A DNA stretch of 64,000 bases. Source: Prorocentrum cordatum (Eukaryota). The notes below the pieces were generated by a model. It made no database searches and was not told the origin of the DNA. It saw nothing but the letters and a program-made list of their open reading frames with translations. Below are positions 1-59,840 of the stretch, piece after piece (the stretch's first letter is position 1; each line of letters opens with the position of its first letter). Where the stretch lies: contig CAUYUJ010000211.1 of NCBI GenBank assembly GCA_963575745.1, positions 1-64,000 on the forward strand, given 5' to 3'. Made by a program: the position numbers and the translations under genes.

Positions 1-487
1 CCCGAGGCCGCCCCGCCGCCGCCCGGCGGCGCGTCGCCCTCAGGGCTTGGCCCGTCGCCGCCAGCCGCCTGCCGCCTGGGCGGCCGCCGCCGCAGCAGCC
101 GTGTTTTCGGCCGCCGCCGCCGCCGCCGTCGCTGGCTGCCGTCCGCGGAGCGTCGGGCCCGCAGCGGCCAGGCCCTCTTGCCAGCCGCGCCGGGCTTGGC
201 CGCCAGCGCCTGCAGCCGCTTCCCGCCGGCGCCGGCCGCGGCGGCGGAGCCTGCTGCCGTTGCTCGCCCCCCCCCTCCGGTCCGCCGCGGGCTGGCCAGC
301 CAGGTTCCTAGGCCCCAGTGGCGGGCCCGCGCCTGCCGAAGGCGCGCCGCCGCCAGCGCGAGGGGCTTGGGAGTCCGCCAGAGCCCGCGGCCAGAGCATG
401 CCGTTTTCGCACGCGCCGACTTCGGCACTGTAGCTGATGAAGACGCTCGGCTCTGGCTTCGGATCCCGGGTCGCCCGGGAAACCGCC

Positions 488-3420
488 TCAGTCCGCGTCG
501 ACAGCATGCCCTTCTCGCTCGCGCCGAGTCCGGCATTGCAGCTGATGGCACCTAGCGCGGTTACCTTCGGCCCCCTGTCGCTGAGTAGCGGCAGTGCCCG
601 CTGCCACTGAGCGCTCTTCGGGCACGCACCGACCCCAGCGCTGTAGCTGATTACGTCTGGCACCAGCTTCGCATCCCACATCGCGCTGAGCAGCGCCAGA
701 GCCCGTTGCCGCTGATCGCCCTTCTCACATGTGCTGATCCCGGCGTTGTAGCTGATCACGTTGGGCCGCAGCTTTGATTCCCGCTGCTCCTGATCGCTCG
801 TCGCGCCTTCCAGGATCCCTGCGCTGTAGCTGATTACGTCGGGTACCAGCTTCGCATCCCGCATCTCGTTGGGCAGCGCCAGTGCCTGCTGCCACTGTCT
901 CCTCCTCTCGCACGTATTGATACTGGCATTGAAGCTGATGACGTTGGGCTGCTACTGTGATTCCCGCATCTCGCGGGGCCGCGTCCGGGCCCGCTGCCGC
1001 TGCCCGCCGCTCCCACATGCGTTGATCCCAGCGCTGTACCTGATTGCGTCGGGCTCCAGCTTCGCATCCCACATCTCTCCGAGCGGCGCCAGAGCCCACT
1101 GCCACTGCTCGCCCTTCGTGTAGGCTCTGATCTCAGCATTGGAGCTAATGACGTCGGGCCCCTGCTTCGCATCCCGCATCGAACTGAACGGCGCCAAAGC
1201 CTGTTACAACTGCCCCCTCTTCTCGCATGCGCTGACCCCAGCGTTGTAGCTGATGGCGTCTGGCTCCAGCCTCGCGTCCACCGTCTCGGCGAGCAGCGCT
1301 ATCAGTGGGCGAGCCTGCTGCCACTGCTCGCCGTTCGTACACGCTCTGATCCCAGGGCTGATCCCAGAGTTGTAGCTGATGGCATCTGGCTCCGACCTCA
1401 CTTCCCATATCTCGCAGAGCAGCGATCGAGCCCGCTGCCACTGCTCGCCTTTCGTGCACGCGCTGATCCCAGAGCTGTAGCTGATGACATTCGGCTCCGA
1501 TCTCGCTTCCCACATCCCGCTGAGCAGTGATAGAGCCCGCTGCCACTGCTCGTCTTTCGCGCACGCGCTGATCCCAGAGCTATAGCTGATGGCATCTGGC
1601 TCCACCTTCGCCTCCCGCATCTCGCTGGGCAGTGAGAGAGCCCGTTGCCACTGCTCGCCTCTCGCGCATGCGCTGATCCCAGAGCTGTAGCTGATGACAC
1701 TTGGCTCCACCTTCGCCTCCCACATCTCGCTGATCAGCGGGAGAGCCTGCTGCCACTGCTCGCCGTTCGCGCACGCGCTGATCCCAGAGTTGTAGCTGAT
1801 GGCAGCTGGCTCCAACCTCACTTCCCGAATCTCGCAGAGCAGCGATAGAGCCCGCTGCCACTGCTCGCCTTTCGTGCACGAGCTGATCCCAGAGCTGTAG
1901 CTGATGACACTTGGCTCCACCTTCGCCTCCCGCATCTCGCTGAGCAGCGGGAGAGCCTGTTGCCTCTGCTCGCCATTGGTACACGCGCTGGTCCCAGGGC
2001 TGATCCCAGAGTTGTAGCTGATGGCATCTGGCTCCAACCTCACTTCCCACATCTCGCAGAGCAGCGATAGGGCCCGCTGCCACTGCTCGCCTTTCGCGCA
2101 CGCGCTGATCCCAGAGTTGTAGCTGATGACATTCGGCTCCGATCTCACTTCCCGCATCCCTCTGAGCAGTGATAGAGCCCGCTGCCGCTGCTCGTCTTTC
2201 GCGCACGCGCTGATCCCAGAGCTATGGCTGATGGCATCTGGCTCCACCTTCGCCTCCCGCATCTGGCTGGGCAGTGAGAGAGCCCGCTGCCACTGCTCGC
2301 CTCTCGCGCATGCGCTGATCCCAGAGCTGTAGCTGATGACACTTGGCTCCACCTTTGCCTCCCACATCTCGCTGAGCAGTGGGAGAGCCTGCTGCCACTG
2401 CTCGCCGTTCGCGCACGCGCTGATCCCAGAGTTGTAGCTGATGGCATCTGGCTCTAACCTCACCTCCCGAATCTCGCAGAGCAGCGATAGTGCCCGCTGC
2501 CACTGCTCGCCTTTCGTGCACGCGTTGATCCCAGAGCTGTAGCTGATGACGCTTGGCTCCACTTTCGCCTCCCAAATCTCGCAGAGCAGCGATTGAGCCC
2601 GCTGCCACTGCTCGCCGTTCGTACACGCGCTGGTCCCAGGGCTGATCCCAGAGTTGTAGCTGATGGCATCTGGCTCCAACCTCACTTCCCACATCTCGCA
2701 GAGCAGCGATAGAGCCCGCTGCCACTACTCGCCTTTCGCGCACGCGCTGATCCCAGAGCTGTAGCTGATGGCATCTGGCTCCACCTTCGCGTCCCGCATC
2801 TCGCTGGGCAGTGAGAGAGCCTGCTGCCACTGCTCGCCGTTCGCATACGCGCTGATCCCAGGGCTGTATCTGATCCCAATCGGCTCCAACCTCACTTCCC
2901 ACATCCCGCTGAGCAGTGATAGAGCCCGTTGCCACTGCTCGTCTTTCGCGCAGGTGCTGATCCTAAAGCTATAGCTGATGTCGCTTGGCTCCACCTTCGC
3001 CTCCCGCATCTCGCTGGGCAGTGAGAGAGCCCGCTGCCACTGTTCGCCTCTCGCGCATGCGCTGATCGCAGAGCTGTAGCTGATGACGCTTGGCTCCGCC
3101 ATCACCTCCCGTCTTCCTCCTCCTCCTCCTCCTCCTCCACGTCCTGACTCCCTGGCTCGCTGCCACTGCCCGCTGACGTCGAGCGCGATTATCTTCGCCT
3201 CCTCCTCCTCCTCCTCGACCTGGTCCTGCTCGTCCGCTGCCTTCTCCTCCTCTTCTATCTCCTCCTCTGCCGCCTCGCTCTCCTCCCTGGCTCGCTGCCA
3301 CTGCCGCTGCCCATTTTTCGCACGTGCGCTGGCCCCAGCGATGCAACTGATGACGTTGGGCCCCAGTTTGGGAATCAGCAGCGCCATAGCCTGCTGCCAC
3401 TGCTCTCTTGCCTCGCAGGC
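488..3420 (-). pseudogene. Degenerate pentatricopeptide-repeat (PPR) array, more than 20 35-aa units
   Basis: 105-bp units encode EPDAISYNSGISACANGEQWQQALPLLSEMWEAKV-like repeats. ORFs 2725..4662 and 1204..2694 share a frame and are split by CAG>TAG (2725-2727). There is another stop at 1204-1206 and frameshifts below 1200. Confidence 0.85.
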
Positions 3421-38059: not shown

Positions 38060-38980
38060 GCAGCAACGCTCCCGCTCGAGACTTCCTCCCTTTTTACTCA
38101 GGGCTGGTGTTTTTGCTCGCCGCCGAAAGCCCCCGTCCTAACAAAAACAGCGCTCCCGCTCGAAACTTCTTCCCATTTTACCTTGGACTGGCGCGCTAGT
38201 CTTTTTCTCATCGGCGCCGCCCCCAGCGAAAATAATGCTCCCGCTCGAGGCTTCCTCCCTTTTTTGCTCAAGGCGGTGTTCCTCCTCGCCGCCGAAAACC
38301 GCCGCCCCGACGAAACCGACGCTCCCGCCCGAGACTTCCTTCCGTTGTACGTTGGACTGGCGCCTACTCTCTTTTGATTTGGGGCCGCTCCCAGCAATAA
38401 CAACGCTCCCGCTCGAACTTTCCTCCCTTTTTTCCTGAAGACGGTGCTATTCCTCGCCGCCGACAGCCCCCGTCCCGACAAGATCATGGCTCCCGCTCGA
38501 TGCTTCCTCCTTTCTTACTCTAGGCGGGGTTCCTTTTCGCCGCCAAAAACCGCCGCCCCGACAAAACCAGCGCTCCCGCCCGAATCTTCCTTCCGTTGTA
38601 CGCTGGACTGGCGCCCTACTCTCTTTTGAATTGGGGCCGCTCCCAGCAATAACAACGCTCCTGCTCGAAATTTCCTCCCTTTTTCCTGAAGACGGTGCTG
38701 TTCCTCGCCGCCGACAGCCCCCGTCCCGACAAAACCACGGCTCCCGCTCGCTGCTTCTTCCCTTCTTACTCAAGGCGGTGTTGCTCCTCGCCGCCGAAAG
38801 CCGCCGTCCCAACAAAACCAGCGTTCCCGCTCGAGACTTCGTTCCCTTTTACGCTGGACTAGCGCCGTACTCTCTTCAGCATTGGCGCCGCTCCCAACAA
38901 CAACAGCAGCCCTGCTCGAGACTTCCTCCCTTTCTATTCAGGGGCAGGTCCTCGCCTCACCGCCGACAGCCCCCATCCCC
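38060..38980. repeat. ~84-bp tandem repeat with apparent 3-unit higher-order structure
   Basis: GCTCCCGCTCGAGACTTCCTCCC core about every 84 bp; every third unit carries GGACTGGCGC. Confidence 0.75.
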
Positions 38981-47104: not shown

Positions 47105-47807
47105 GTGAGGAGGAGCAGGAGGATAATGAGAGAAGGGGACGAGGAGGAGGAGGAGGAGGAGGAGGAGGAGGAGGGAGGAGGAGGAGAGGAGGAGGAGAGG
47201 ATGAGGAGGGAGGGAGGAGGAGGAGGAGGAGGAGGAGGAGGAGGAGGAGGAGGAGAGGAGGAGGAGGAGGAGGAGGAGGAGGAGGAGGAGGAGAAGAGGG
47301 GAGGAGGAGGAGGAGGGAGGAGGAGGAGGAGGAGGGGACGTGTAGTGAGGAGGCGGAGGAGGAGGAGGAGGAGGAGGAGGAGGACGAGGAGGAGGAGGAG
47401 GAGGAGGAGGAGGAGGAGGAGGGAGAGGAGGAGGAGGTAGGAGGAGGAGGAAGGAGGAGGAAGAGGAGAGGAGGAGGAGGAGGAGGAGGAGGAAGAGGAG
47501 GCGGAGGCGGAGGAGGAGGCGCGCCGGGGCGGAGGCGGTAGGCGGAGGCGTAGGCGGGAGGCGGAGGGCGGAGGCGGAGGAGGAGGGGAGGAGGAGGAGG
47601 AGGAGGAGGAGGAGGAGGATGAGGACGATGATGATGAGATGATGATGATGATGATGCTGATGATGATGATGATGATGATGATGTGATGATGTGAGATGAT
47701 GATGATGATGATGATGGATGATGAGCTGATGCTGATGATATGATGAATGATGATGATGACGATGAGATGATGATGGTGATGATGATGATGAGGAGGAGAG
47801 GAGGACG

Positions 47808-47839
<32 letters not shown>

Positions 47840-47955
47840 GTGATGATGATGATGGATGAGGAGGAGGAGCGAGGACGGATGATGATGATGATGATGCTGA
47901 TGATGACGATGATGATGGATGATGATGTTGATGGATGATGATGATGATGTGCTTG

Positions 47956-47986
<31 letters not shown>

Positions 47987-48216
47987 GATGATGATGATGA
48001 GGAGGAGGAGGAGGAGGGAGGAGGAGGAGGAGGAGGAGGATTGGGGACGAGGCGGAGGAGGGGACGGCGGACGAGGAGGATTGATTGGCGGGGGACGAGG
48101 AGGATGAGGCGGGGACGAGGAGGAGAAGGAGGAAGAGGAGGAGGGGGAGGAGGAGGAGGAGGAGGAGGAGGAGGAGCAGGAGGAGGAGGAGGAGGAGGAG
48201 GAGGAGGAGGAGGAGG
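47105..48216. repeat. (GGA)n/(GAT)n tract, left flank of the retrotransposon
   Basis: Direct reading. Confidence 0.95.
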
Positions 48217-48391
48217 TGTTAACATGCACGCATGCGTGTGACAGGGGAGGAATAGTAACCCCGCTGCCTTTGGCTCAAGTGTTTAACGGTCGAAGTCACA
48301 TCGACCAGTTGCGCAGTTCGGGAGTATAAAGGTGACCTATCGTTATCATTGTCGCCAAGCTCCCGTGCAGAACCCTCCTCGGGGTTTTGCA
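48217..48391 (+). repeat. 5' LTR (175 bp)
   Basis: TGTTAACATG...GGGGTTTTGCA; differs from the 3' LTR by 2 substitutions and a 1-nt indel. Confidence 0.97.
48260..48279 (+). other. DinoSL-like motif in the 5' LTR
   Basis: CCCGCTGCCTTTGGCTCAAG versus DinoSL DCCGTAGCCATTTTGGCTCAAG. Confidence 0.7.
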
Positions 48392-48409
48392 TGGTAGCGG
48401 AGCGTGGTT
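48392..48409 (+). promoter_or_regulatory. Primer binding site, initiator tRNA-Met type
   Basis: TGGTAGCGGAGCGTGGTT directly abuts the LTR; its complement AACCACGCTCCGCTACCA resembles a tRNA-iMet 3' end. Confidence 0.85.
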
Positions 48410-48412
48410 GCC

Positions 48413-51028
48413 ATGGCAGCGGCAGCGGCAGCGGCAGCTGCGGCAAGACCTGGACAGGGCGACCCGCCAGTTAATCTCAATGTGCCGGCAGACAGAGATG
48501 CTTGGGTCAACATGGATCCGAATCGATTCAACGACCTGTGCGAGCAAGCATACGTGAACGGAGACTTCAGTTACGTTCAATCGGCGCTACTCGCAAACCA
48601 CTTTGGGCTCGCAACGTTCATTAACGAGCGAGTAGCACAGGACCGACGGGAGGTATCGAACGCCGAAGCATTCCAAATGTTACAGAGTGCCCACAAGACC
48701 AACAGTATGCTGTTAGCGATCACGAAGAGAAATGCTGCGCTCGAAAGAGATGCTCGCAGATTAGTGGAAAGAGTCACCGAGTTGGAGACCAACAGTGAAG
48801 TCCAAGAAAAGTTGATCGAAAGGTTCGGTCAGATCTCGGAAGCAATCAAAGGAGGAAGCGGAAACAAGCACGGGAGCAGTAAACCGATAAGCGAATATAA
48901 GGCGTTACAGGCGCTAAAGAACTTCAGTGGGGAAAGAGCGAAGTTCAGAGACTGGAACGACAAATTCTTGAACGCACTAGCCCAAGTGAAGCCGAGTTAC
49001 CGACCGGCACTGAAAATGCTAAACAAGAAGCTGGAGACGCTTGACGGAGTTGTACCAGAAGAGGACGACGATGACATCATACGCATAATGAACGGTCGAT
49101 TAACTGCAAGCGAGTACCTGAAGGCAAGTCAAGCCAAGCAAGCCGAGGACGACAACAAAGGCGAATATGAGTTTACCGAAGGAGACAAGACTCAGATGGA
49201 AGAAGACTTATGGTACATTCTGAACGAGAAACTTGAAGGTGCGGAGGCCAGAGGAAAATTAAAGGGACTGATGGATGGAGACGGAATCATGGCTTGGCAA
49301 AAGGTTTATCAATGGTACTCGGCAGTAACCGGAGCGACCTTGTCATCAAAAATGACGCATGCCATGAATCCTGAACCGCCCAAGAAGATCACCGACACCG
49401 TTACCCGACTTGAGGAATGGAGCGCATTGGCAGAAAATCTTGAGAAATATGGCAAAGATTACTCGCTGCCTCTTCCTTTCAAAGTCACCGCGCTCAGGGC
49501 CATAATGGTGCACGCGAATGACTGGTCTGACGAATGGCAGCAGGCATGTTGGCGAACGCCTGACGCGCTTAACATTGACTCATTTCAGAAATTGTACTCA
49601 AAGTGTGAAGACTGGGCGCGTAAAAAGAAACTTGACTCAGATTCAAAAAATAAGGATGCAATGGGCATTGGAAATATCAACGAGATGAGTCAAGGGTCCG
49701 AAAACGTTTGGGACCAAACAGGATGGGTTGACGAAGATGGAAACTGGTGGTCAGAGGATGGATCGTGGAATCACGGGTCCTGGGCCAATGAAAGTGACGG
49801 TGGAGAATATGAGGGAATTGACGCCGTAAACAAAGGTAAGGGTAAAGGAATGGGCCCCAGGTGTTACAATTGTGGAGGCATGGGCCATTTAGCCAGGAAC
49901 TGCACGAGACCCAAGCAGTTCACCAAAGGAGGTAAAGGTGGCAAAGGCGGAAAAGGCAAAGGTTACCGAGCCACTTACGGATCCTATGTGAAAGGTAAGA
50001 TCGGAGGCAAACATGGAGGTAAAGGAAGTAGCTCGTGGGGAGGAAGCTACGGAAGCCGAGGGAAATTTACCCCGCACAGTGAGCGTGAATGTTACAAGTG
50101 TGGCGGAAAAGGGCATATTGCCATTAACTGCCCGGGCTCCAAGAAGACCGCCAACGAAGTTGAGCAAGAGAAGCCTGCAGTAAACACCGAAACTGAACAA
50201 ACCACCTCGTTCGGTCAACCACAGCACGTTCTCAGCGTCGAGATGAAGGAAGCAATGAACGTGTCGCTAGACCAGACTGCGATCGTGGAGGTTAACGAGA
50301 AATGGGACCTGCCCTATTACGCCAGAAAGAAGACGGCGCGTGACAACGCGGTAAACATGAGAAGAATCTATCAGGAACACCAGTACGACGGAGACCGTTA
50401 CCATACTAGTCAGTGGGATCAAAGAATAAGTAAAAGCGTGAGGCAGGGAAAAAGTTGGCTGGCGAAATGCAAGGAAATTGGACTAATTGAGATGCGGGGA
50501 GGTGATCCAGAGATTAACGCAGTGCCGCCACCAAGTGCAACACATGAGACGATCGTGGTCACCGTGGACTCCGGCGCCTACAACACAGTGGGGCCCCCCA
50601 AAGTTGGCACTCATTTCCCCATTAAGCATGCGGACGCGTCAAAGCAGGGACGACACTACAGTGCGGCAAATGGAACCACGATAAAGAATTATGGTCAACG
50701 CGTGATCACAGGTAAAAATGAGCATGGGAACGCAGTCAGTATGCCAATTCAGGTGGCAGAGGTCAACAAAGTCCTAGGGTCGGTAAGAGAGATGGTAAAC
50801 GCTGGAAACAGAGTGGTGTTCGACAAGGATCCTAACGGGAAGTCCCTGAGCCACATCATGAACAAAGCGACTGGCAAGTTAACAGCCATCCATGAAAAGA
50901 ATGGCACGTTCCAGTTCAACATCACAGTGCCGAAGGGACCAGCGGAAGCCGTCAATCCCAGGAGTGAAGTGAACGTGACTGAGGGTTTTCCGCGGCCGGG
51001 AACCCTGGAGGCGGATCTGTTCTACTAA
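48413..51028 (+). CDS. gag: Gag-protease polyprotein (ORF1)
   Basis: ATG at 48413. Two CCHC knuckles (CYNCGGMGHLARNC 49862-49903; CYKCGGKGHIAINC 50090-50131) and aspartic protease VTVDSGA (DSG 50567-50575). Confidence 0.92.
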   Translation: MAAAAAAAAAARPGQGDPPVNLNVPADRDAWVNMDPNRFNDLCEQAYVNGDFSYVQSALLANHFGLATFINERVAQDRREVSNAEAFQMLQSAHKTNSMLLAITKRNAALERDARRLVERVTELETNSEVQEKLIERFGQISEAIKGGSGNKHGSSKPISEYKALQALKNFSGERAKFRDWNDKFLNALAQVKPSYRPALKMLNKKLETLDGVVPEEDDDDIIRIMNGRLTASEYLKASQAKQAEDDNKGEYEFTEGDKTQMEEDLWYILNEKLEGAEARGKLKGLMDGDGIMAWQKVYQWYSAVTGATLSSKMTHAMNPEPPKKITDTVTRLEEWSALAENLEKYGKDYSLPLPFKVTALRAIMVHANDWSDEWQQACWRTPDALNIDSFQKLYSKCEDWARKKKLDSDSKNKDAMGIGNINEMSQGSENVWDQTGWVDEDGNWWSEDGSWNHGSWANESDGGEYEGIDAVNKGKGKGMGPRCYNCGGMGHLARNCTRPKQFTKGGKGGKGGKGKGYRATYGSYVKGKIGGKHGGKGSSSWGGSYGSRGKFTPHSERECYKCGGKGHIAINCPGSKKTANEVEQEKPAVNTETEQTTSFGQPQHVLSVEMKEAMNVSLDQTAIVEVNEKWDLPYYARKKTARDNAVNMRRIYQEHQYDGDRYHTSQWDQRISKSVRQGKSWLAKCKEIGLIEMRGGDPEINAVPPPSATHETIVVTVDSGAYNTVGPPKVGTHFPIKHADASKQGRHYSAANGTTIKNYGQRVITGKNEHGNAVSMPIQVAEVNKVLGSVREMVNAGNRVVFDKDPNGKSLSHIMNKATGKLTAIHEKNGTFQFNITVPKGPAEAVNPRSEVNVTEGFPRPGTLEADLFY
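50983..50989 (+). promoter_or_regulatory. Candidate -1 ribosomal frameshift slippery site G GGT TTT
   Basis: X XXY YYZ in gag phase. The -1 frame opens right after TGA 50980-50982, and a GC-rich stem-loop follows (50990-51014). Confidence 0.7.
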
Positions 51029-51094
51029 GCCCCCCGTCACCCGTAAGACCAAGCGAAAACTTAAACGTCTTTAATACCGAAGGAGACGAAGGGA

Positions 51095-54000
51095 GTGAAA
51101 GTGGGGGCAGACGAAGGGAGTGAAAGTGGGGGCAACGACAGTGAGTTAAGTGATGTGGAAGATGTATTTGTGAGTGATGAGGCAGAGTTACCAAAGAAGA
51201 TTTACTGTGATATGAGGCCCTCAAAAGAGGAAGTTGAAGCGCATAACACGACGCATTTACCTTGCCGAAGCTGGTGCCCACATTGCGTCAGAGGAAAAGC
51301 TCGCAGACGCAATCACCGTAGACGCAAAAGAGAGGGGAACGGGAACGTGCCAGTGATTTCAATGGACTACATGTGGCTTAAAGGAAGAAAAGATGAAGGT
51401 GAAAGCAGCAGCAATGGCAACCCAATTTTGGTCATGCGTTGCAGAGAGACCAAATTGACTTGGAGCAGAGTGTTAATGAAAAAGGGAGTGGACTCGTACT
51501 CGGTAAAAGTAGGATGTGACATGATAAGTTTTACCGGATACAAGAAAGTGATACTCAAAAGTGATGGGGAAGCGGCAATCACAGCATTGGCCAATAGGAT
51601 TAAAGCTTCGTGTGATCTTGACATGGGAGTTGAGGTCAGCCCAGTGGGAGACTCAAAGGCCAACGGCGAAATTGAGAGAGCCGTTAGGACAGTGCAGGGC
51701 CAAGTCAGAACGTTTAAGAGCGCCCTGGACGCCAATTATAAAACTGAGTTTGGAGAAAGTCATCAGATAATACTTTGGCTGGTGAGTTATGCGTCCTCTT
51801 TGATTAACAAGTTCGCAATAGACACGGATGGGAAGACGGCTCATGAGAGGTGCAGGGGACGAAAATTTAACAAGCAAATCCCAGAGTTCGGTGAGTGTGT
51901 CATGTATTTAAAGACACCCGCGCACAAGGGTCGCGAGAAGCTCGAAATGAGATGGGAAAGTGGAGTGTTCCTGGGCATAAACGAGAAGAGTCAAGAGCTG
52001 ATTATTGGGACGCCTCATGGTGCAATCAAGGCGCACGAGTTTAAAAGAAAGGGAAGTGATGCTGAAAGATGGAATATTGCCGAGATTACCGAAATAAAGG
52101 GATTACCTTGGCAGCCTGACCCAAGCACAGCGGGAATGCAATTACAGTCTAGGATCATGGTGCCCATGGATCTACCAGAGCAAGAGTTAACTGCGCCTGA
52201 GACGAAGCCACTCATTGCAAGAGGAATTGCAGTTAAAAAGCATGAATACTTGAAAATGGGACCGACGCCAGGGTGTTACGGATGCAAATGCCTCGTGAGA
52301 GGAGACAAAGAGCACAAGCCGCGCAACGCCGATTGCAGGGCTCGAGTCATTGAATGGTTAAAGAAACAAGAGAGCCCGAACATCCAAGCAAGACTAGCGT
52401 CTGCCCAGTTAAGGCTTGAGAGCAAAAGTCGTGCACCAGAAAATCGTGAACAAGAATCAGAAAGTCAAACGAAGAAACTGAGGATCAACGTACCGCCTCC
52501 GCCGAGCGCCAAAGTTGAGGAACCTAAGGACGAGTGGGTAATAAAGGGGAACAAAGTTATATGTCAACACCGACGGCCGAGGAAAGAGTTAGCCTTCCCC
52601 ACCAATGGTGGGTGTCCAGTGGACTGGGACAAACTTAAGCCTAAAAGATATACCCACGCGATCATGATTGACGGCGGCAAGATACATGAGCACGAAGATG
52701 CTTTGTGTGGTAAAGATGGAGGCGATCAGACATGGGCTATGGGAAACCCCTTTAACGGTTACTGGACCGGATGGACCGAGTTCGAAGTAGAAGATGAAGA
52801 AATGAAGGATCCCCCGCGTGAACCCGTTAAACGAAAAGCAGAGGACGATCATGACGAAGAAGATCAACAGGCGACTCAGCATCGGCAACTTGACATGGAA
52901 CAAGATGAAGAAATGTCAGAGGTAAACGACATCAAGTTGGGACTCAACATGATGGGATTTGACTCTGAACTGGTTGAATGGTTGACAAGTGGTGAACTGA
53001 ACATCGTGCGCCAATTAAACGAGGTAAGGAGAGCCACCGGGCTCCATGGAGCATGCCAACACGAGACTCAGGCGCACGTAACAGAAGCGTATTCGCCGGT
53101 AAGAGTTACTGGAATGGCAGAAAAAATGGGATTGATACCAGGATTAGCAATGGATTTAACGACACGAGACCAACATGGTAACCCATGGGATTTTAATGTG
53201 CCGGCCATGCGTGTGAAAGCAAAAAAGATTGTCAAATCCAAAGCGGCTCTACTACTGGTGGTGAGCCCCATGTGCGCAGCCTTCAGCAGACTTCAATCGT
53301 TTAACTTTAAAAGATTGGGTGCCGACCGCGTGAAACAGATGTTAGATTACGGGATCAAACATTTGACGTTCGCAATGGAGCTCTGCGAAATTCAACGACG
53401 AAATGGGTTATACTTTCTGTTTGAACACCCTGCAGGAGCAACCAGCTGGGGCACTTCAACGGTGCAACGGCTGCTCAGAAACAAGGATGTCAAAGTATAC
53501 GATGGAGATTTGTGCTGTTACGACTTAAAGCAGGTGGTCAAAGGCGAAGAGATGTTTATTAAGAAACCTACCAAGTTCATGACGAACAGTTCAGCCATCG
53601 GACATGAGTTAAGTTGGAAATGTAAAGGGCAACATCGACACATAGAGTTAACTGGTGGTAGTAGGACGCACAGATCAGAGGTCTACCCAGATAAACTGTG
53701 TCGAGCGATACTGAAAGGACTTATAAAGCAAATGAAGATCGACGGCCGTCAAGGGGGTACATTTAAAGAAGAGGAAGTAGCGAACATGGAAGTCGAAGAA
53801 GAAGAACAAAGTGAGGCGCAGATTGGCGAGATTAACTGGGCGTGTGAACATGAGAACGAAGATAGGAAGCACAAGCACCAGTTAACGTGGACGAGGAGAG
53901 ACTATGGAACACGAAGATTAATGTTGCCGGGACCAAGTGGACCACAATGGAGTTCATGCATTAGGAGAATTACCGCCAACATAGACACCGGGAAAATTAT

Positions 54001-55876
54001 CGAGGACAGGCCCGTGAATGAGATCACAGGGAAAGAGAGAAGGAGGATGTTTAAGAAGGGGCCAGTTAACACCTCCACCACCTTTACGTATGAAGCTGTC
54101 GGCGAAATTGCTCCACACAAGTGGAAATGCTGTGCATGTGAACATGAGGGATGGCTCAAGACGCCTAGTACGTGTGAGGCGTGCGAAAGAACTGGAACAG
54201 TTAACCCTCTCCCGATGAACGCGATCAACGTTGTCCACAAAGAAAATGAAGAGATTATTCAAGCTTGGGATGATGTTACAGGAAACGAGCTCGACCCTAA
54301 ATTGACTGTGAGAGCGCGTCAAGAAGAAATGGAGCAATTCAGAAAACACAAAGTTTACGAGAAAGTGAAAGAGGAAGTATGCTGGCAAATTACGGGGAAG
54401 GCGCCCATCGGAACCAGATGGATAGACATCAACAAAGGAGATGAGTTAAGCCCAGACCACAGATCAAGGCTGGTAGCCCAGCAAGTTAAATACAACTCCA
54501 AAGAAAAGAACATATTCGCAGCTACACCTCCACTGGAAGCACAAAAACTGCTTTTCTCAATGGCAGTTACCGAGGGAGTTGGATTCACGAACGGTGAGCG
54601 TGAGAAAGGATTAAAGCTAGCATTCATTGACATCAAACGAGCTTACTTTTACGCTCCAGCAAAGAAAGACATATTTATCAGATTACCAGACGAAGACTAT
54701 GAACCAGGTATGTGCGGAAAGCTGTTAAAATCAATGTACGGAACCAGAGACGCTGCGAGTAACTGGGAGGACTGTTACATGGATTTTGCCAACGAAGCTG
54801 GGTTCAAGAGCGGAATTGCGTCACCATGTGTGTTCAAGCATGAGAGTCGAGCGTTATGGTTAACAGTTCATGGAGATGATTTCACGCTGTTAGGAGGTGA
54901 CCATGATCTCGACTGGTTTGAAAATAAAATTAAGGAGGAGTTTGAAGTGAAAGTGAGAGGACGACTTGGACCAGGGAAGGAGGACATGAAAGCGATCAGA
55001 ATTCTTAACAGGATTGTTGAATGGACCCAGGAAGGATTGAGGTATGAGGCAGATCAAAGGCATGCAGAGATAATTGTGAAAGAGCTTGAGCTAGAAGGAG
55101 TAAAGGTGAGGACTGAAGTGCCAGGTGAGCGAATTCCAGTTGAAGAGGGAGATGAGGAAGAGCTTTCGCCCAACATGACTAAAATATATCAAGCGTTGAC
55201 GGCCAGAGCAAATTACTTAGCTCAGGACAGGTCTGACATACAGTATTCGGTAAAGGAACTCGCTAGGACCATGTCAAAGCCCACGATGAGCTCTTGGAAA
55301 GGTTTAGTCAAGTTAGGAAAGTATTTGAAGTACCACAGCAGAAGCGGCTATGTGTATCAATATCAGGAGCAGCCCCAAGAGTTAACCATTTGGACTGACA
55401 CAGATTACGCAGGATGTAAGCGAACGAGGAAGTCTACGAGTGGGGGAGTAGTGATGTGGGGTAAACATCTCATAAAGTCCTGGAGCACGACTCAGAGTGT
55501 AATTGCGTTATCGTCAGGTGAAGCAGAGTATTACGGACTGGTGAAAGGAGGATCAGTGGGTTTAGGACTTCAGGCAGTATTGAGAGACTTTAACTTGGAA
55601 GTTGAGATTACAGTGAAGAGTGACGCCACAGCTGCGATTGCCATCGCAAGCAGACGAGGCTTGGGGAAGGTAAGACATATCGAGGTGTGTCAGTTGTGGT
55701 TACAGCAGAAAGTTAAGGAGGGAGTGATTCGTATTGTGAAAGTCGGGACACACGAGAATGCAGCAGATGCGTTGACCAAGTGTGTCAGTCGTGAAAGCAT
55801 GAGCACACATCTACGAAACACGAATCAATGTGCATTAACAGGCAGGCATGAGCTTGCACCAGCTACTGAATGTTGA
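51095..55876 (+). CDS. pol: Pol (ORF2): integrase, C5-DNA-methyltransferase-like insert, reverse transcriptase, RNase H
   Basis: HHCC HNTTH..CPHC (51242-51286); DDE MDY/SDG/GEIER; RT RSRLVA, DIKRAY, KSMYG, VHGDD (54866-54880); RNase H TDTDYAG, EAEY, SDATAA, NAADALTK. Confidence 0.95.
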   Translation: MKVGADEGSESGGNDSELSDVEDVFVSDEAELPKKIYCDMRPSKEEVEAHNTTHLPCRSWCPHCVRGKARRRNHRRRKREGNGNVPVISMDYMWLKGRKDEGESSSNGNPILVMRCRETKLTWSRVLMKKGVDSYSVKVGCDMISFTGYKKVILKSDGEAAITALANRIKASCDLDMGVEVSPVGDSKANGEIERAVRTVQGQVRTFKSALDANYKTEFGESHQIILWLVSYASSLINKFAIDTDGKTAHERCRGRKFNKQIPEFGECVMYLKTPAHKGREKLEMRWESGVFLGINEKSQELIIGTPHGAIKAHEFKRKGSDAERWNIAEITEIKGLPWQPDPSTAGMQLQSRIMVPMDLPEQELTAPETKPLIARGIAVKKHEYLKMGPTPGCYGCKCLVRGDKEHKPRNADCRARVIEWLKKQESPNIQARLASAQLRLESKSRAPENREQESESQTKKLRINVPPPPSAKVEEPKDEWVIKGNKVICQHRRPRKELAFPTNGGCPVDWDKLKPKRYTHAIMIDGGKIHEHEDALCGKDGGDQTWAMGNPFNGYWTGWTEFEVEDEEMKDPPREPVKRKAEDDHDEEDQQATQHRQLDMEQDEEMSEVNDIKLGLNMMGFDSELVEWLTSGELNIVRQLNEVRRATGLHGACQHETQAHVTEAYSPVRVTGMAEKMGLIPGLAMDLTTRDQHGNPWDFNVPAMRVKAKKIVKSKAALLLVVSPMCAAFSRLQSFNFKRLGADRVKQMLDYGIKHLTFAMELCEIQRRNGLYFLFEHPAGATSWGTSTVQRLLRNKDVKVYDGDLCCYDLKQVVKGEEMFIKKPTKFMTNSSAIGHELSWKCKGQHRHIELTGGSRTHRSEVYPDKLCRAILKGLIKQMKIDGRQGGTFKEEEVANMEVEEEEQSEAQIGEINWACEHENEDRKHKHQLTWTRRDYGTRRLMLPGPSGPQWSSCIRRITANIDTGKIIEDRPVNEITGKERRRMFKKGPVNTSTTFTYEAVGEIAPHKWKCCACEHEGWLKTPSTCEACERTGTVNPLPMNAINVVHKENEEIIQAWDDVTGNELDPKLTVRARQEEMEQFRKHKVYEKVKEEVCWQITGKAPIGTRWIDINKGDELSPDHRSRLVAQQVKYNSKEKNIFAATPPLEAQKLLFSMAVTEGVGFTNGEREKGLKLAFIDIKRAYFYAPAKKDIFIRLPDEDYEPGMCGKLLKSMYGTRDAASNWEDCYMDFANEAGFKSGIASPCVFKHESRALWLTVHGDDFTLLGGDHDLDWFENKIKEEFEVKVRGRLGPGKEDMKAIRILNRIVEWTQEGLRYEADQRHAEIIVKELELEGVKVRTEVPGERIPVEEGDEEELSPNMTKIYQALTARANYLAQDRSDIQYSVKELARTMSKPTMSSWKGLVKLGKYLKYHSRSGYVYQYQEQPQELTIWTDTDYAGCKRTRKSTSGGVVMWGKHLIKSWSTTQSVIALSSGEAEYYGLVKGGSVGLGLQAVLRDFNLEVEITVKSDATAAIAIASRRGLGKVRHIEVCQLWLQQKVKEGVIRIVKVGTHENAADALTKCVSRESMSTHLRNTNQCALTGRHELAPATEC
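53075..53725 (+). other. C5-cytosine methyltransferase-like domain within Pol
   Basis: Ordered motifs EAYSP (I-like), MDL/WDF (II/III-like), VSPMCAAFS (IV), FLFEHP (VI), KKPT (VIII-like), YPDKLCRAI (X-like). Confidence 0.7.
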
Positions 55877-55979
55877 CGTATCGAATGTTGATGTTCGCAG
55901 CTCATTTCTGTCAAGCAAACTGCAGCTATTAAAGGCCTTCTCCACCCATCACCTCTCACTCTTGAGCGTGAACGAGGGA

Positions 55980-58235
55980 ATGGCGGCTCCCCAGGTCAAC
56001 CTCACCATCAACGGCTCCATGGTCGACCAGAGCCCGGCTGGGGATGGACCGGTTACGCGTGAGAACCTCAACCGCCGTGTTGACGACATGGTGCACGTTG
56101 CCCACGCGTTTACCGTCACCCTCACTAACATGGCGATTAACTTCCACGGAGCCTACGACAAACACGTTGACGAGGTGCAAAGGGCCGCGGATGACATGGC
56201 GGCGAGGATCGAGGAGTTGACGCGGCAGAACGATGCGCTGATCCAGGACAGTGACGACGTCAACGAGAATCTCCAAAGGGCGCAGAAGGAGATTAACGAC
56301 CTGATGGCGACGATTACGGACCTGAACATTCAGAACCGCGACTCGGGGGTTAACACGGAGGAGAATGCAACCAAGTATAGGCGCATCAACGACAACATTG
56401 GTTACCTCCTGAACACCGCCAAGCGCCTTACCGATAACATCACGCCCCTGCAGGACTTCGAGGGTAAACGTGATGCGGCGCTACGCCTGTTGGTGGCAGT
56501 AACGGAGAGGCTGGAAGGATTACAGAGGTTCTTGCATGACCCGATCAACTCCCCGGTTACCAACATCCCGCAGGTTCCTCCGCCGTTGCCCGAGCAGCCC
56601 CCAACAGCAGTGGTCGCCAAGGCACCTCCCACTGCAGTCAACGCGACGGCCGGGGCCAGCCAGCCTCTAGCCCGAGCTGCCGCCGCATCGGGTGCACCCC
56701 CGGCTCAGGGCTTTACCGGCACCACGCCCAAGACCGGAGGATTCGGTCGATCCGTGTCGCCGAATAAGATCCCACAGTCAACGTCACCTCAACCTGTTTA
56801 CAAGAAGGCACCCAAGGCCATGCATGAGCGTAAGCGGGAATTGGAAGAGTTACTGCAGCTGGGAATGAAGATGGATGAAGATCGTGCACAGGGCAGTCAA
56901 CGTGACGAAGCAGCAAAAGGCCCTGCCCCGGTGGTGAAAGCGAGGGCGCCCAAGCCGCCTCCTCCAGGCCTTGGAGAGTCAGGTGCATCAAGCAGTGTTA
57001 GCGGCATGAATCCCCCGCCTCCGGTGCCCAAGAAGTTATCGACCCAGTATGTTCCTCCACCGCAGCCTCAAACCGTTAACCGTACGGACGAGCAGCTCGC
57101 GGCATACTCGCGGAACGTCGCCGGGGGCATGTACCGGCCACTGTATCATGTCAACGGCCGCATGCCTATGGTAAACGACAAGAGCGAGGACCACGACGTC
57201 AACTACAAGGTGGAGCCCGACCCCAGGGAGGTAGTCGCATTAACGATGAAGACGCGCGACAACTGGCGCAGGTTCGAAGGCAACTTCGTCGGACATGTGG
57301 CAAAAGAGGGGTTAACGACTCCAGGTGGTCGATCTATCCCGGGCAACACGGGGCGGGAACTCAACGACTACGATGAGGTGTTCGTCGACATTTACGGGCA
57401 GCACGCCTACGGCTTCCTTGGTTACTCTGTGTTAAAGGGCCCAAGCAGCTGGAGGTCTCAGTTGACGGAGAAGGAGCTGGAAAAGCACGACGAGTGGGTT
57501 GACGCGGTCGGGCACGTACAATCCCTGTTCGACGACGAGTACGTGCCGCCGATTCACGTTAACGATCTCCACCCAGTGTGGTTCGACGTTCACAGCTGCC
57601 CAGACACACAGGTCTACGTCAACAAGGCGCCAGAAATGAACGAGAAACAGCTTAACGGCCTTCTGCTAACGTGGGCCGGGATGCTGCCCCACGGCAACCC
57701 CGCCGTGGTCTCCGTTAAGCACCTGGTGGAAGACACTTACGGACCGCACGGCTACATCTCAACTGGGGTTACCGTGATCAGGTTTGCGACGCACGACCTC
57801 GCCAAGCTCTATTGTCGTTACATGAACGGGCTCCAGGTGTATTACCGCAACTACTTCATCGAGGATCTCGAGGTCAGGAGCGCCGAGGAGTTAAAGGGCA
57901 GCATCAACAAGCCCCCGGTTTACTGGCACCAGACCATCCTGGAGGTCGCTCTTAACGACCAGGGGTCCATGAGGGCGCTCTACCGTGACAACTGGCCTGC
58001 GGATCACATTACCGAGCGTAAAAGTGACCACCGCGAGAAGCTCTGTTGGTTTGGGTGGTTGCCGTGTGACGACTTTGCCAACTGGCTTACCGACCCGTAC
58101 TGGACTGTGAACCCATTTACCGGAGTTGCGGTCGAGGAGCACCTCCGCAACAATCCAGGTGGTAAACCTCTGCTGAAGGCTCCCCACGCCAGTTACTGGA
58201 GGGCCATTGGCAGGTACTTACCACAATATTGTTGA
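55980..58235 (+). CDS. ORF3: coiled coil, Pro/Ala-rich linker and RRM-like domain
   Basis: Long non-repetitive ORF inside the LTRs (track 55848..58235; a likely start is ATG 55980, MAAPQ). Heptad-like region 56150-56535; VYVNKAP / TGVTVIRF / YMNG at 57603-57840. Confidence 0.85.
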   Translation: MAAPQVNLTINGSMVDQSPAGDGPVTRENLNRRVDDMVHVAHAFTVTLTNMAINFHGAYDKHVDEVQRAADDMAARIEELTRQNDALIQDSDDVNENLQRAQKEINDLMATITDLNIQNRDSGVNTEENATKYRRINDNIGYLLNTAKRLTDNITPLQDFEGKRDAALRLLVAVTERLEGLQRFLHDPINSPVTNIPQVPPPLPEQPPTAVVAKAPPTAVNATAGASQPLARAAAASGAPPAQGFTGTTPKTGGFGRSVSPNKIPQSTSPQPVYKKAPKAMHERKRELEELLQLGMKMDEDRAQGSQRDEAAKGPAPVVKARAPKPPPPGLGESGASSSVSGMNPPPPVPKKLSTQYVPPPQPQTVNRTDEQLAAYSRNVAGGMYRPLYHVNGRMPMVNDKSEDHDVNYKVEPDPREVVALTMKTRDNWRRFEGNFVGHVAKEGLTTPGGRSIPGNTGRELNDYDEVFVDIYGQHAYGFLGYSVLKGPSSWRSQLTEKELEKHDEWVDAVGHVQSLFDDEYVPPIHVNDLHPVWFDVHSCPDTQVYVNKAPEMNEKQLNGLLLTWAGMLPHGNPAVVSVKHLVEDTYGPHGYISTGVTVIRFATHDLAKLYCRYMNGLQVYYRNYFIEDLEVRSAEELKGSINKPPVYWHQTILEVALNDQGSMRALYRDNWPADHITERKSDHREKLCWFGWLPCDDFANWLTDPYWTVNPFTGVAVEEHLRNNPGGKPLLKAPHASYWRAIGRYLPQYC

Positions 58236-58836
58236 CGGGTCCACCAAGAGCTTTGACGAGGGGTGCTGGTTGGACGACGAGGAGCGCATTAACGCGTACC
58301 TGGACACCGACTATTACAGCCCGACGCAGGCCCTTAACAGGGTGTCGTCCTATACGGCGGCCAGCGTGGGGCACCGTGGTTTACCGAAGTCCAGGGGCGC
58401 GCGTGCTCCGTCAGTGAGGCGCCCGCGCCGGTCGTAAACGGTGACAGGTGACCGGCATGCCTTTCTTTTACGCTCGCTCTCATCTCCCCTCTCAACCAGG
58501 CTTAACAATAGCATTGCAGTAGACTATTGAGCTGAATCTATTTGCGTGTGCATCTTTTATAGTTACCGCAGGTATTGGCGCATAACAAGCGAAAGCAATC
58601 AAAACCATGTAAATGCTAGCCTGCCGTGTGAACCTTAGATGCTACTTTTAAACTCGTAACTGATTGAATGTTTACTTGAGCTCACGTTGCATGTCTGAGA
58701 GACGTGGTGCTCGTGAACGTGGTTATGAGATATTTCGAATTCGGCAGTGTGACGATACTCACGCAGCCTGTCGCTTGATTTAACCTGTCTTTGTGTTTAC
58801 AAGGACCTCCCCGTCAGCCAATGCGGACTGGCGTCC

Positions 58837-58845
58837 GAGGGGGGG
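58837..58845 (+). promoter_or_regulatory. Polypurine tract
   Basis: GAGGGGGGG immediately before the 3' LTR. Confidence 0.85.
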
Positions 58846-59021
58846 TGTTAACATGCAAGCATGCGTGTGACAGGGGAGGCATAGTAACCCCGCTGCCTTT
58901 TGGCTCAAGTGTTTAACGGTCGAAGTCACATCGACCAGTTGCGCAGTTCGGGAGTATAAAGGTGACCTATCGTTATCATTGTCGCCAAGCTCCCGTGCAG
59001 AACCCTCCTCGGGGTTTTGCA
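58846..59021 (+). repeat. 3' LTR (176 bp), with DinoSL-like motif at 58889-58909
   Basis: Direct repeat of 48217-48391; contains CCCGCTGCCTTTTGGCTCAAG. Confidence 0.97.
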
Positions 59022-59796
59022 GGAGGAGGAGGAGGAGGAGGAAGAGGGGGAGGAGGAGGATAATGAGAGAAGGGGACGAGGAGGAGGAGGAGGAGTAGGA
59101 GGAGGAGGAGGAGGAGGAGAGGAGGAGGAGGAGGAGGAGGAGGAGGAGGAGGAGGAGGAGGAGGAGGAGGAGGAGGGAGGAGGAGAGGAGGAAGGAGGAG
59201 GAGGAGGAGGAGGAGGAGGAGGAGGAGGAGGAGGAGGAGGAGGAGGATGAGGAGGAGGAGGAGGAGGAGGAGAGGAGAGGAGGAGGAGGAGGAGGAGAGG
59301 AGGAGGAGGAGGAGGAGGAGGAGGAGGAAGAGGAGGAGGAGGAGGAGGAGGAGGAGGAAGGAGGAGGAGGAGGGGAGGAGGAGGAGGAGGAGGAGGAGGA
59401 GAGGGGAGGAAAGGAGGAAGGAGGAGGAGGAGGAGGAGAGGAGGAGGAGGAAGGAGGAGGAGGAGGAGGAGGAGGAGGAGATGAGGAGGAGGAGGAGAGG
59501 GGAGGAGAAGAGGAGGAGGAGGAGGAGGAGGAGGGAGGAGAGGAGGAGGAGGAGGGCGGAGGAGGAGGAGGAGGAGGAGGAGGAGGAGGAGGAGGGGAGA
59601 GGAGGGGGAGGAGGAGGAGGGAGGAGGAGGAGAGGAGGAGGAGGGGACGACGAGGAGGAGGAGGGGACGAGGAGGAGGCGGGGGAGGAGGAGGAGGAGGA
59701 GGAGGAGGAGGAGGGAGGGAGGAGGAGGAGGAGGAGGAGGAGGAGGAGGAGAGAAAGGACGAGGCGACCGAGGGAGGAGGTGGATGAGGAGGAGGA

Positions 59797-59828
<32 letters not shown>

Positions 59829-59840
59829 GAGGAGGAGGGG
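59022..59840. repeat. (GGA)n tract, right flank
   Basis: Direct reading. Confidence 0.95.

Follow-up and report, generated by a model that had tools for sequence, protein, structure and literature searches.

Dinoflagellate nuclear mRNAs are all described as receiving a 22-nt spliced leader (SL; the dinoflagellate sequence is called DinoSL) (PMC7245778, PMC3229502), and relict copies of this leader are found upstream of retroposed genes (Slamovits and Keeling 2008, via PMC3229502 and PMC7245778; Song et al. 2017, PMC5585692). These relicts are cut after the internal AG of the SL (position 7) and stacked in tandem behind a fresh SL, and the internal AG is reported to be the acceptor that is reused when retrogenes are trans-spliced again (PMC3229502, PMC5585692). 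The available text of PMC6050394 and PMC5585692 calls the retroelement behind the SL-tagged retrogenes unknown and suspects Ty1/copia. The DNA analysed here, the first 64,000 nt of contig CAUYUJ010000211.1 of Prorocentrum cordatum (assembly GCA_963575745.1, forward strand; this whole stretch is called the window), contains a Ty1/copia element of 10.8 kb at 48217-59021, and both of its long terminal repeats (LTRs) carry an SL-like block that derives from the dinoflagellate SL and is a real copy of it. Like the retrogene relicts, the block is a genome-encoded, sense-strand SL copy located shortly upstream of a unit with an RNA stage, and it retains the 3' part better, as do the relicts, for which Song et al. 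see retention step up from TTTG on (PMC5585692). Unlike the relicts, it is single, apparently lies between the U3 and the R-U5 parts of the LTR, and has its last 7-10 nt near-invariant across a transposon clade.

The copia elements SmTCL1-4 of Symbiodinium microadriaticum (PMC5776459) and the Oxyrrhis copia expressed sequence tags (PMC3942190) resemble the window element in having RVT_2, a gag zinc knuckle, a primer binding site (PBS), a polypurine tract (PPT) and LTRs. The available descriptions of both make no mention of an SL in the LTR, and the terms “spliced leader” and “DinoSL” have 0 occurrences in the text of PMC5776459; the LTRs studied here also differ from those of known dinoflagellate copia elements in being very short, 106-179 nt. 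Cer1, a Ty3/gypsy element of Caenorhabditis elegans, is likewise an LTR element in a trans-splicing host and its RNA can take the host SL, but SL1 is found only on a 2.4-kb spliced mRNA; its 8-kb gag-pol RNA undergoes no trans-splicing, and the available text describes no LTR copy of the SL (PMC3315495). Searches of openly available full texts on dinoflagellate SLs, trans-splicing, strand transfer and LTR or copia retrotransposons found no report of an SL inside LTRs. An LTR retrotransposon whose LTR incorporates the host SL appears to be new, although there may be an earlier report.

The original prediction had reported an SL-like block about 44 nt into each LTR and had described the 3' copy as the last 12 nt of DinoSL with CCG and GCC further 5'. 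Its coordinates and letters are exact (Table 1), the block starts at nt 44 of both LTRs, and the 3' copy reads as was described. In a manual alignment with DinoSL as printed in PMC7245778, the 3' copy agrees at 18/22 positions with one gap. The two LTRs have the same orientation and are 2 substitutions and one T apart, the T being in the T-run of the block, and the block encodes the variant, non-canonical SL letters CCCGCTGCC. The internal AG of the SL (positions 6-7) is replaced and reads CTG, and the nearest AG upstream is at 48254-48255, which leaves 22 AG-free nt. A DinoSL RNA gene was rejected as the identity of the block, given the gapped and incomplete match, the next bases TG and the absence of the GT donor; Rfam gave no match in 48100-48600 at E up to 1. 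A retrogene relict SL was also rejected, the block being single, located inside both LTRs and mutated at the internal AG.

When the chance expectation of the match is computed, the window alone is weak evidence, and it is the comparison with related loci, described below, that excludes chance. The last 10 nt of DinoSL, TTGGCTCAAG, have 2 occurrences in the window against 0.16 expected, and at least two were seen in 0/100 shuffles; these matches are one event because they are copies of one LTR, so the 10-mer alone says little. At uniform base frequencies, 2 x 64 kb should hold about 0.008 exact copies of a 12-mer; the only mismatch-free match to the SL 12-mer in the window is the 3' LTR block. 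An ungapped 21-mer scan of the whole window with up to 3 mismatches gave no match, because the SL alignment needs a gap. Two matches to the 12-mer with one mismatch, at 38261 and 31312, were rejected since they do not resemble SL copies. A tandem repeat at 38064-38933 (periods 83, 168 and 251 nt) includes TTTTTGCTCAAGG or TTTTACTCAGG in its units; their resemblance to the SL 3' end is weak and probably due to chance.

Relatives of the element were sought in metagenome contigs by a scan with pol alignment, which confirmed 575 relatives; the best 80 loci (366,144 nt, designated by L numbers) were kept, with pol 36-76% identical over the best segment. The same type of scan found no relative in viral contigs. 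In these 80 loci, all 30 exact occurrences of TTGGCTCAAG are on the sense strand and none is on the antisense strand, against a mean of 0.21 and a maximum of 3 for 200 permuted 10-mers. Nearly all copies of the 10-mer sit in short LTRs that are otherwise unalignable, and in a tree of the reverse transcriptase (RT) region (quick maximum likelihood, 54 rows) each of the major supported clades includes loci with an exact motif. Beyond the termini and the block, the LTRs have no alignable sequence among relatives, and few of 990 pairwise LTR comparisons are informative, those that are not duplicates being L057, L067 against L062/L075, and L073 against L079. The motif is held in place across many divergent LTR families, a positional conservation that the original prediction had proposed as a check. 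A chance likeness, or the neutral decaying relic of one capture, agrees with the window, in which a single independent match to the 10-mer is not rare at the expectation given above; the 30 to 0 strand bias, the presence of the motif in all major clades at such pol identities and the unalignable LTR sequence around it contradict this explanation, which was rejected and is extremely unlikely.

In loci that extend at least 300 nt past the pol C-terminus, the 10-mer is exact in 21/47 and has at most one mismatch in 26/47; in those that include the pol N-terminus together with 2 kb or more of upstream sequence, the values are 6/13 and 8/13. Many loci that lack it are contigs too short to include the LTR. 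Sites were also ascertained blind to the motif, by the PBS sequence TGGTAGCGGAGC (up to 1 mismatch) with at least 150 nt upstream, and this sequence lies 3' of the LTR at 24 sites. Within 200 nt of it, 14 sites have the exact 10-mer, four have it with one mismatch, two have only GCTCAAG and four have neither; two of the last group are L019, which has a near-full SL variant, and L052, which has by eye a degenerate SL-like stretch.

The usual layout among relatives is a PPT similar to that of the window element, the TG start of the LTR, 17-169 nt to the block, and then another 35-64 nt until the LTR ends and the PBS begins. The latter distance is longer in L001 (80 nt), in the window (112 nt) and in L077 (151 nt). 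The U3 is very short in several families, in which the LTR start is separated from the 10-mer by 17 nt (L012, L063), 31 nt (L007) or 37 nt (L017), so there is little room for a promoter. (T)TTGGCTCAAG located 35-150 nt before TGGTAGCGGAGC is a simple metagenome marker for these elements. The order pol-PPT-LTR-PBS-gag is seen in contigs L004, L013, L019, L022, L042, L051, L053, L057, L058, L072 and L079, which are either tandem elements that share one LTR, one-LTR circles or LTR-collapsed assemblies; contigs that contain the closest pol cluster have repeatedly a length of 10.4-11.3 kb, about one element.

The SL origin of the block is also visible upstream of the 10-mer, where the preceding 12 nt are closer to SL positions 1-12 than are control windows of the same LTR (Wilcoxon p = 0.0007, from 52 sites that include some noise matches in coding sequence). 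The anchored alignment of the SL 5' half is over-flexible, so the overall score contrast is used and not a per-position table. L003, L017, L019 (both LTRs) and L056 are within 3 edits of the full SL. Retention climbs toward the SL 3' end: at 23 non-redundant PBS-anchored junctions, chosen regardless of the motif, TCAAG is present at 20, CTCAAG and GCTCAAG at 19 each, GGCTCAAG at 17, TGGCTCAAG at 16, TTGGCTCAAG at 14, TTTGGCTCAAG at six and the 12-mer TTTTGGCTCAAG at none, while shuffled words of at least 7 letters have a mean of at most 0.28.

These counts bear on the proposal, made for dinoflagellate retrogenes, that TTT(T/G) of the SL is a core promoter that keeps them alive (PMC5585692). 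Applied to the LTRs, a core promoter formed by an SL relic would drive transcription and the block would belong to U3; the idea has the merit of being published for retrogene relicts, and TATAAAG 3' of the block in the window makes a start further downstream conceivable. TTTT or TTTG, however, precedes GCTCAAG at only 6/19 junctions, and it is GGCTCAAG that is conserved and not the T-run. Many families also have only 35-45 nt between the block and the PBS; hardly any R would remain if transcription began about 30 nt downstream. This promoter role is quite unlikely.

The sequence around the final AG of the block was compared at 23 independent LTR sites. L079:11376 (coding), L010:1678 and L054:2452 (no recognisable LTR context), L063:1920 (flank array), near-identical copies and sites too near a contig end were left out of this sample. 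The 10 nt that precede the 10-mer hold 0 AG dinucleotides, where the local content of A and G predicts 6.5; the counts are 7 at -20 to -10 (10.3 expected) and 14-24 further upstream (12.6-16.3 expected). The nearest AG upstream of the final AG of the block is 20-88 nt away (median 30) at 23/23 sites, but control AG spacing is shortened by purine-rich tracts, which lessens the weight of this spacing and makes the binned observed and expected counts the safer measure. The pyrimidine fraction is 0.61 in the last 10 nt and 0.43-0.53 further upstream. The block ends as is expected of a trans-splice acceptor, in an AG that follows an AG-free, pyrimidine-richer stretch. The internal AG of the SL is gone at 23/23 sites, and a hand alignment of the 10 most recognisable 5' halves, which is a lead only, has position 6 altered in 8. 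GT directly follows AAG at 0/23 sites, so the block resembles an SL joined to an mRNA body and not an SL RNA gene.

The 5' edge of the block is a similarity breakpoint of related LTRs, which fits a U3/R border. The two LTR versions of L057 agree over the PPT flank and some 30 nt; a stretch of 60-75 nt that cannot be aligned follows, and identity returns exactly at TTGGCTCAAG and extends to the PBS. L073 and L079 compare in the same way, with an indel that abuts the block, and in a contig of one public sequencing run the match to the window begins at 58899, in the T-run just before the 10-mer. No contig that starts with the SL or ends in poly(A) was found among the related loci. The strict conservation of 7-10 nt is also compatible with a sequence-specific role of GGCTCAAG, at the RNA or the DNA level, that is unrelated to splicing at this site, for instance as the target of a host SL-binding protein involved in export or packaging; such a role leaves both the AG-free zone and the breakpoint at the 5' edge unexplained and is unlikely. 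To our knowledge, no SL-binding protein of this kind has been described.

The R of an LTR element is normally set by the transcription start, and its presence at both ends of the RNA guides the first template switch; in retroviral-type replication, the R of both progeny LTRs is copied from the RNA's 5' end. Trans-splicing replaces the 5' end of an RNA, so an LTR element with a start-defined R is in difficulty in a host that trans-splices. The reading that we prefer, to which we give an even chance, is that the element RNA is trans-spliced to the SL at the final AG of the block and that R has the block as its 5' edge. An old and diverse Ty1/copia clade would carry an SL copy between a short U3 and R-U5, and the AG that ends this copy would be the acceptor of the element pre-RNA. 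The host 22-nt SL would be joined ahead of the base after AAG (48280 in the window), giving an RNA whose 5' end resembles the block encoded in the LTR. Minus-strand strong-stop cDNA would thus end in the complement of the SL 3' part, and this end could pair with the block in the 3' LTR, as expected if the block is the 5' edge of R. In most cycles, letters near the junction would be copied afresh from the host SL and remain canonical, and those further 5', beyond the reach of the strong-stop cDNA, would be inherited from the LTR and drift. Compared with the R of retroviruses and Ty1, part of R here would come from host RNA by trans-splicing and not from the start site.

Such a cycle would explain why the motif is confined to one strand, why retention increases 3'-ward, why AG is missing before the final AG of the block, why related LTRs diverge at the block and why the U3 is short. 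The internal AG would be lost because its use would add an unmatched 22-nt tail. Trans-splicing at the AG of the block, the extent of R and the re-templating are all proposed from the sequences compared here. In the more tentative extension described below, a promoter-defined start would be unnecessary, which fits a U3 of 17-37 nt, and the element could be expressed by read-through of the one-directional gene arrays of the host. The clade would also be an example of how an LTR element survives with minimal promoters and general trans-splicing, despite the need for a start-defined R.

A rival scheme is an encoded pseudo-leader: the RNA would begin at the block or slightly upstream of it, undergo no trans-splicing and bear an SL-like 5' end encoded by the element itself, which might, for example, let the host treat it as one of its own mRNAs. 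Sense-strand conservation and the location of the block at the point where LTRs diverge, as at a U3/R border set by a start site, agree with such mimicry, as does the L019 family, which transmits a variant block unchanged. Mimicry of a capped leader should however keep the 5' half, which is the least conserved, and it predicts neither the AG-free zone nor the loss of the internal AG; the U3 of 17-37 nt in some families also has scant room for a promoter. It is unlikely, though not negligible. The original prediction had left the choice between mimicry and copying of trans-spliced element RNA into the LTR. The AG-free zone and the retention gradient favour a block copied from, and used for, trans-spliced RNA, and pure mimicry is disfavoured. 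The further claim that the motif marks the start of R agrees with the divergence of related LTRs at the block, but a location in U3 is still permitted by TATAAAG downstream.

Several observations weigh against a trans-spliced R. On the window alone, the block could belong to U3, since TATAAAG is found 45 nt 3' of it; A-rich or TATAAAG-like words are also located 3' of the block in L003, L004 and L008, the word of L004 being 14 nt from the LTR end. Nothing SL-like is found upstream of the PBS in L066 and L069. The internal AG is retained in L019 and L056, and in both LTRs of L019 the block has the variant 3' end GGCTTTCAAG; it is thus inherited in that family, and re-templating is not obligatory. 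Retention also drops more sharply between 10 and 12 nt than would be expected of a simple gradient. Polarella cDNAs often begin at SL positions 2 or 8 (PMC7245778), which shows RT truncation inside the SL, though not at position 12. The 3' LTR holds the same acceptor, whose use there would cut R off the genomic RNA, so it would have to be skipped. Finally, loci of one metagenome may be kin, only near-identical copies having been removed.

A more tentative extension, which we regard as possible but doubtful, is that the clade lets its host provide the genomic RNA with a 5' end, so that R starts with the trans-spliced SL and is re-copied into both LTRs in each cycle, and that strand transfer of host cDNA onto the 3'-LTR block could mass-produce SL-tagged retrogenes. 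The original prediction had suggested strand transfer between element cDNA and SL-bearing host RNA. Element cDNA that pairs with a host SL would have run out of template, since the SL forms the extreme 5' end of the mRNA. In the opposite direction, every host mRNA yields a cDNA that terminates in the SL complement and could therefore transfer onto the block in the 3' LTR of the element. Dinoflagellate genomes are full of SL-tagged retrogenes, and copia LTRs with an SL at the likely U3/R border link both physically. At L063:1906-1962, about 200 nt past the LTR block, there is an SL-like 22-mer followed by two truncated relict units that start with CCATTTTG; this flank array is the stacked pattern described for dinoflagellate retrogenes.

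Table 1. Features of the Ty1/copia element in the window, in order of position
Feature	Position	Strand	Remarks
5' LTR	48217..48391	+	175 nt, TG...CA ends; direct repeat of 58846-59021
SL-like block, 5' LTR	48260..48279	+	CCCGCTGCCTTTGGCTCAAG; one T fewer than the 3' copy
TTGGCTCAAG, last 10 nt of DinoSL	48270..48279	+	final AG, 48278-48279, is the proposed trans-splice acceptor
TATAAAG	48325..48331	+	45 nt downstream of the block; possible TATA box or poly(A) signal
PBS TGGTAGCGGAGC	48392..48403	+	adjoins the 5' LTR end
gag open reading frame	48413..51028	+	871 aa; Pfam zf-CCHC, E 1.6e-11, 44.1 bits (cut-off 20.8)
pol open reading frame	51212..55876	+	1554 aa; Pfam RVT_2, E 2.2e-13, 50.8 bits (cut-off 31.6)
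Third open reading frame	55848..58235	+	795 aa, between pol and PPT; 29-nt overlap with the pol end, other frame
PPT GAGGGGGGG	58837..58845	+	ends right before the 3' LTR
3' LTR	58846..59021	+	176 nt, TG...CA ends
SL-like block, 3' LTR	58889..58909	+	CCCGCTGCCTTTTGGCTCAAG; last 12 nt are those of DinoSL

The RVT_2 reverse transcriptase in pol identifies a Ty1/copia element, which also has paired TG...CA LTRs, a gag zinc knuckle, a PBS and a PPT (Table 1). No tRNA gene was found in the window by ARAGORN. The Pfam integrase model rve has no match in pol; SH3_retrovirus matches weakly (E 0.0049, below cut-off) and an H..H...C..C word is present at the pol N-terminus. A search with pol found 1199 homologs, the top identity being 73%. 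No family reaches its Pfam cut-off in the third open reading frame, which has only weak matches of coiled-coil type. Between the integrase-like N-terminus and the RT, pol residues ~560-900 form a conserved stretch with the consensus words GSPMC..FS and HEHP; no Pfam family matches it, and it may be an extra domain. The gag and pol share a reading frame, with three in-frame stops within about 15 codons between them (51026-51211); pol may be expressed via read-through or splicing, or the element may be a dead copy.

GGAGG is present on both flanks of the element (48212-48216 and 59022-59026), which is compatible with a 5-bp target duplication and is uninformative inside a (GGA)n array. Such arrays flank the window element (47107-48216 and 59021-59838) and its nearest relative, L001 (L001:1-49; RT 79% identical). 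Microsatellites also adjoin the relatives L065 and L059, and (AGT)n is found in L067 and L076. These flanks reflect either a target preference for purine-rich simple repeats that resemble the PPT or merely a repeat-rich genome, and the window is itself dominated by simple and tandem repeats.

The identification of the organism as a dinoflagellate, on which the original prediction depended, is borne out by the neighbouring PPR gene, 52/55 of whose organism-named homologs are from dinoflagellates. This PPR-repeat gene (~40-3111, minus strand, with about 21 copies of a 105-nt unit) is the only ordinary gene in the window, and the open reading frame at 1204-2691 was used as the query. Organism names are given for 55 among the 120 matches listed, with 25 from Prorocentrum cordatum, 10 from Polarella glacialis, 17 from Symbiodiniaceae and 3 from brown algae; the best named homologs among these matches are from Prorocentrum cordatum and Polarella glacialis. 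The sole organism-named relative of pol among the 120 matches listed for it is from Polarella glacialis, and the relict SL array in the flank of L063 is consistent with a dinoflagellate host. This evidence of the host is indirect but consistent.

Contigs (Logan) of four public runs (X5, X3, X1 and X9) contain a high-copy, diverged family, with 51 to 1753 matching records per run; no joints and no SL-bearing loose ends were found in this comparison. The copies differ from the window mostly by transitions (G>A at 62-138 places per run, C>T at 45-92 and A>G at 52-114), an excess that would be expected of old, possibly methylated, repeat copies.
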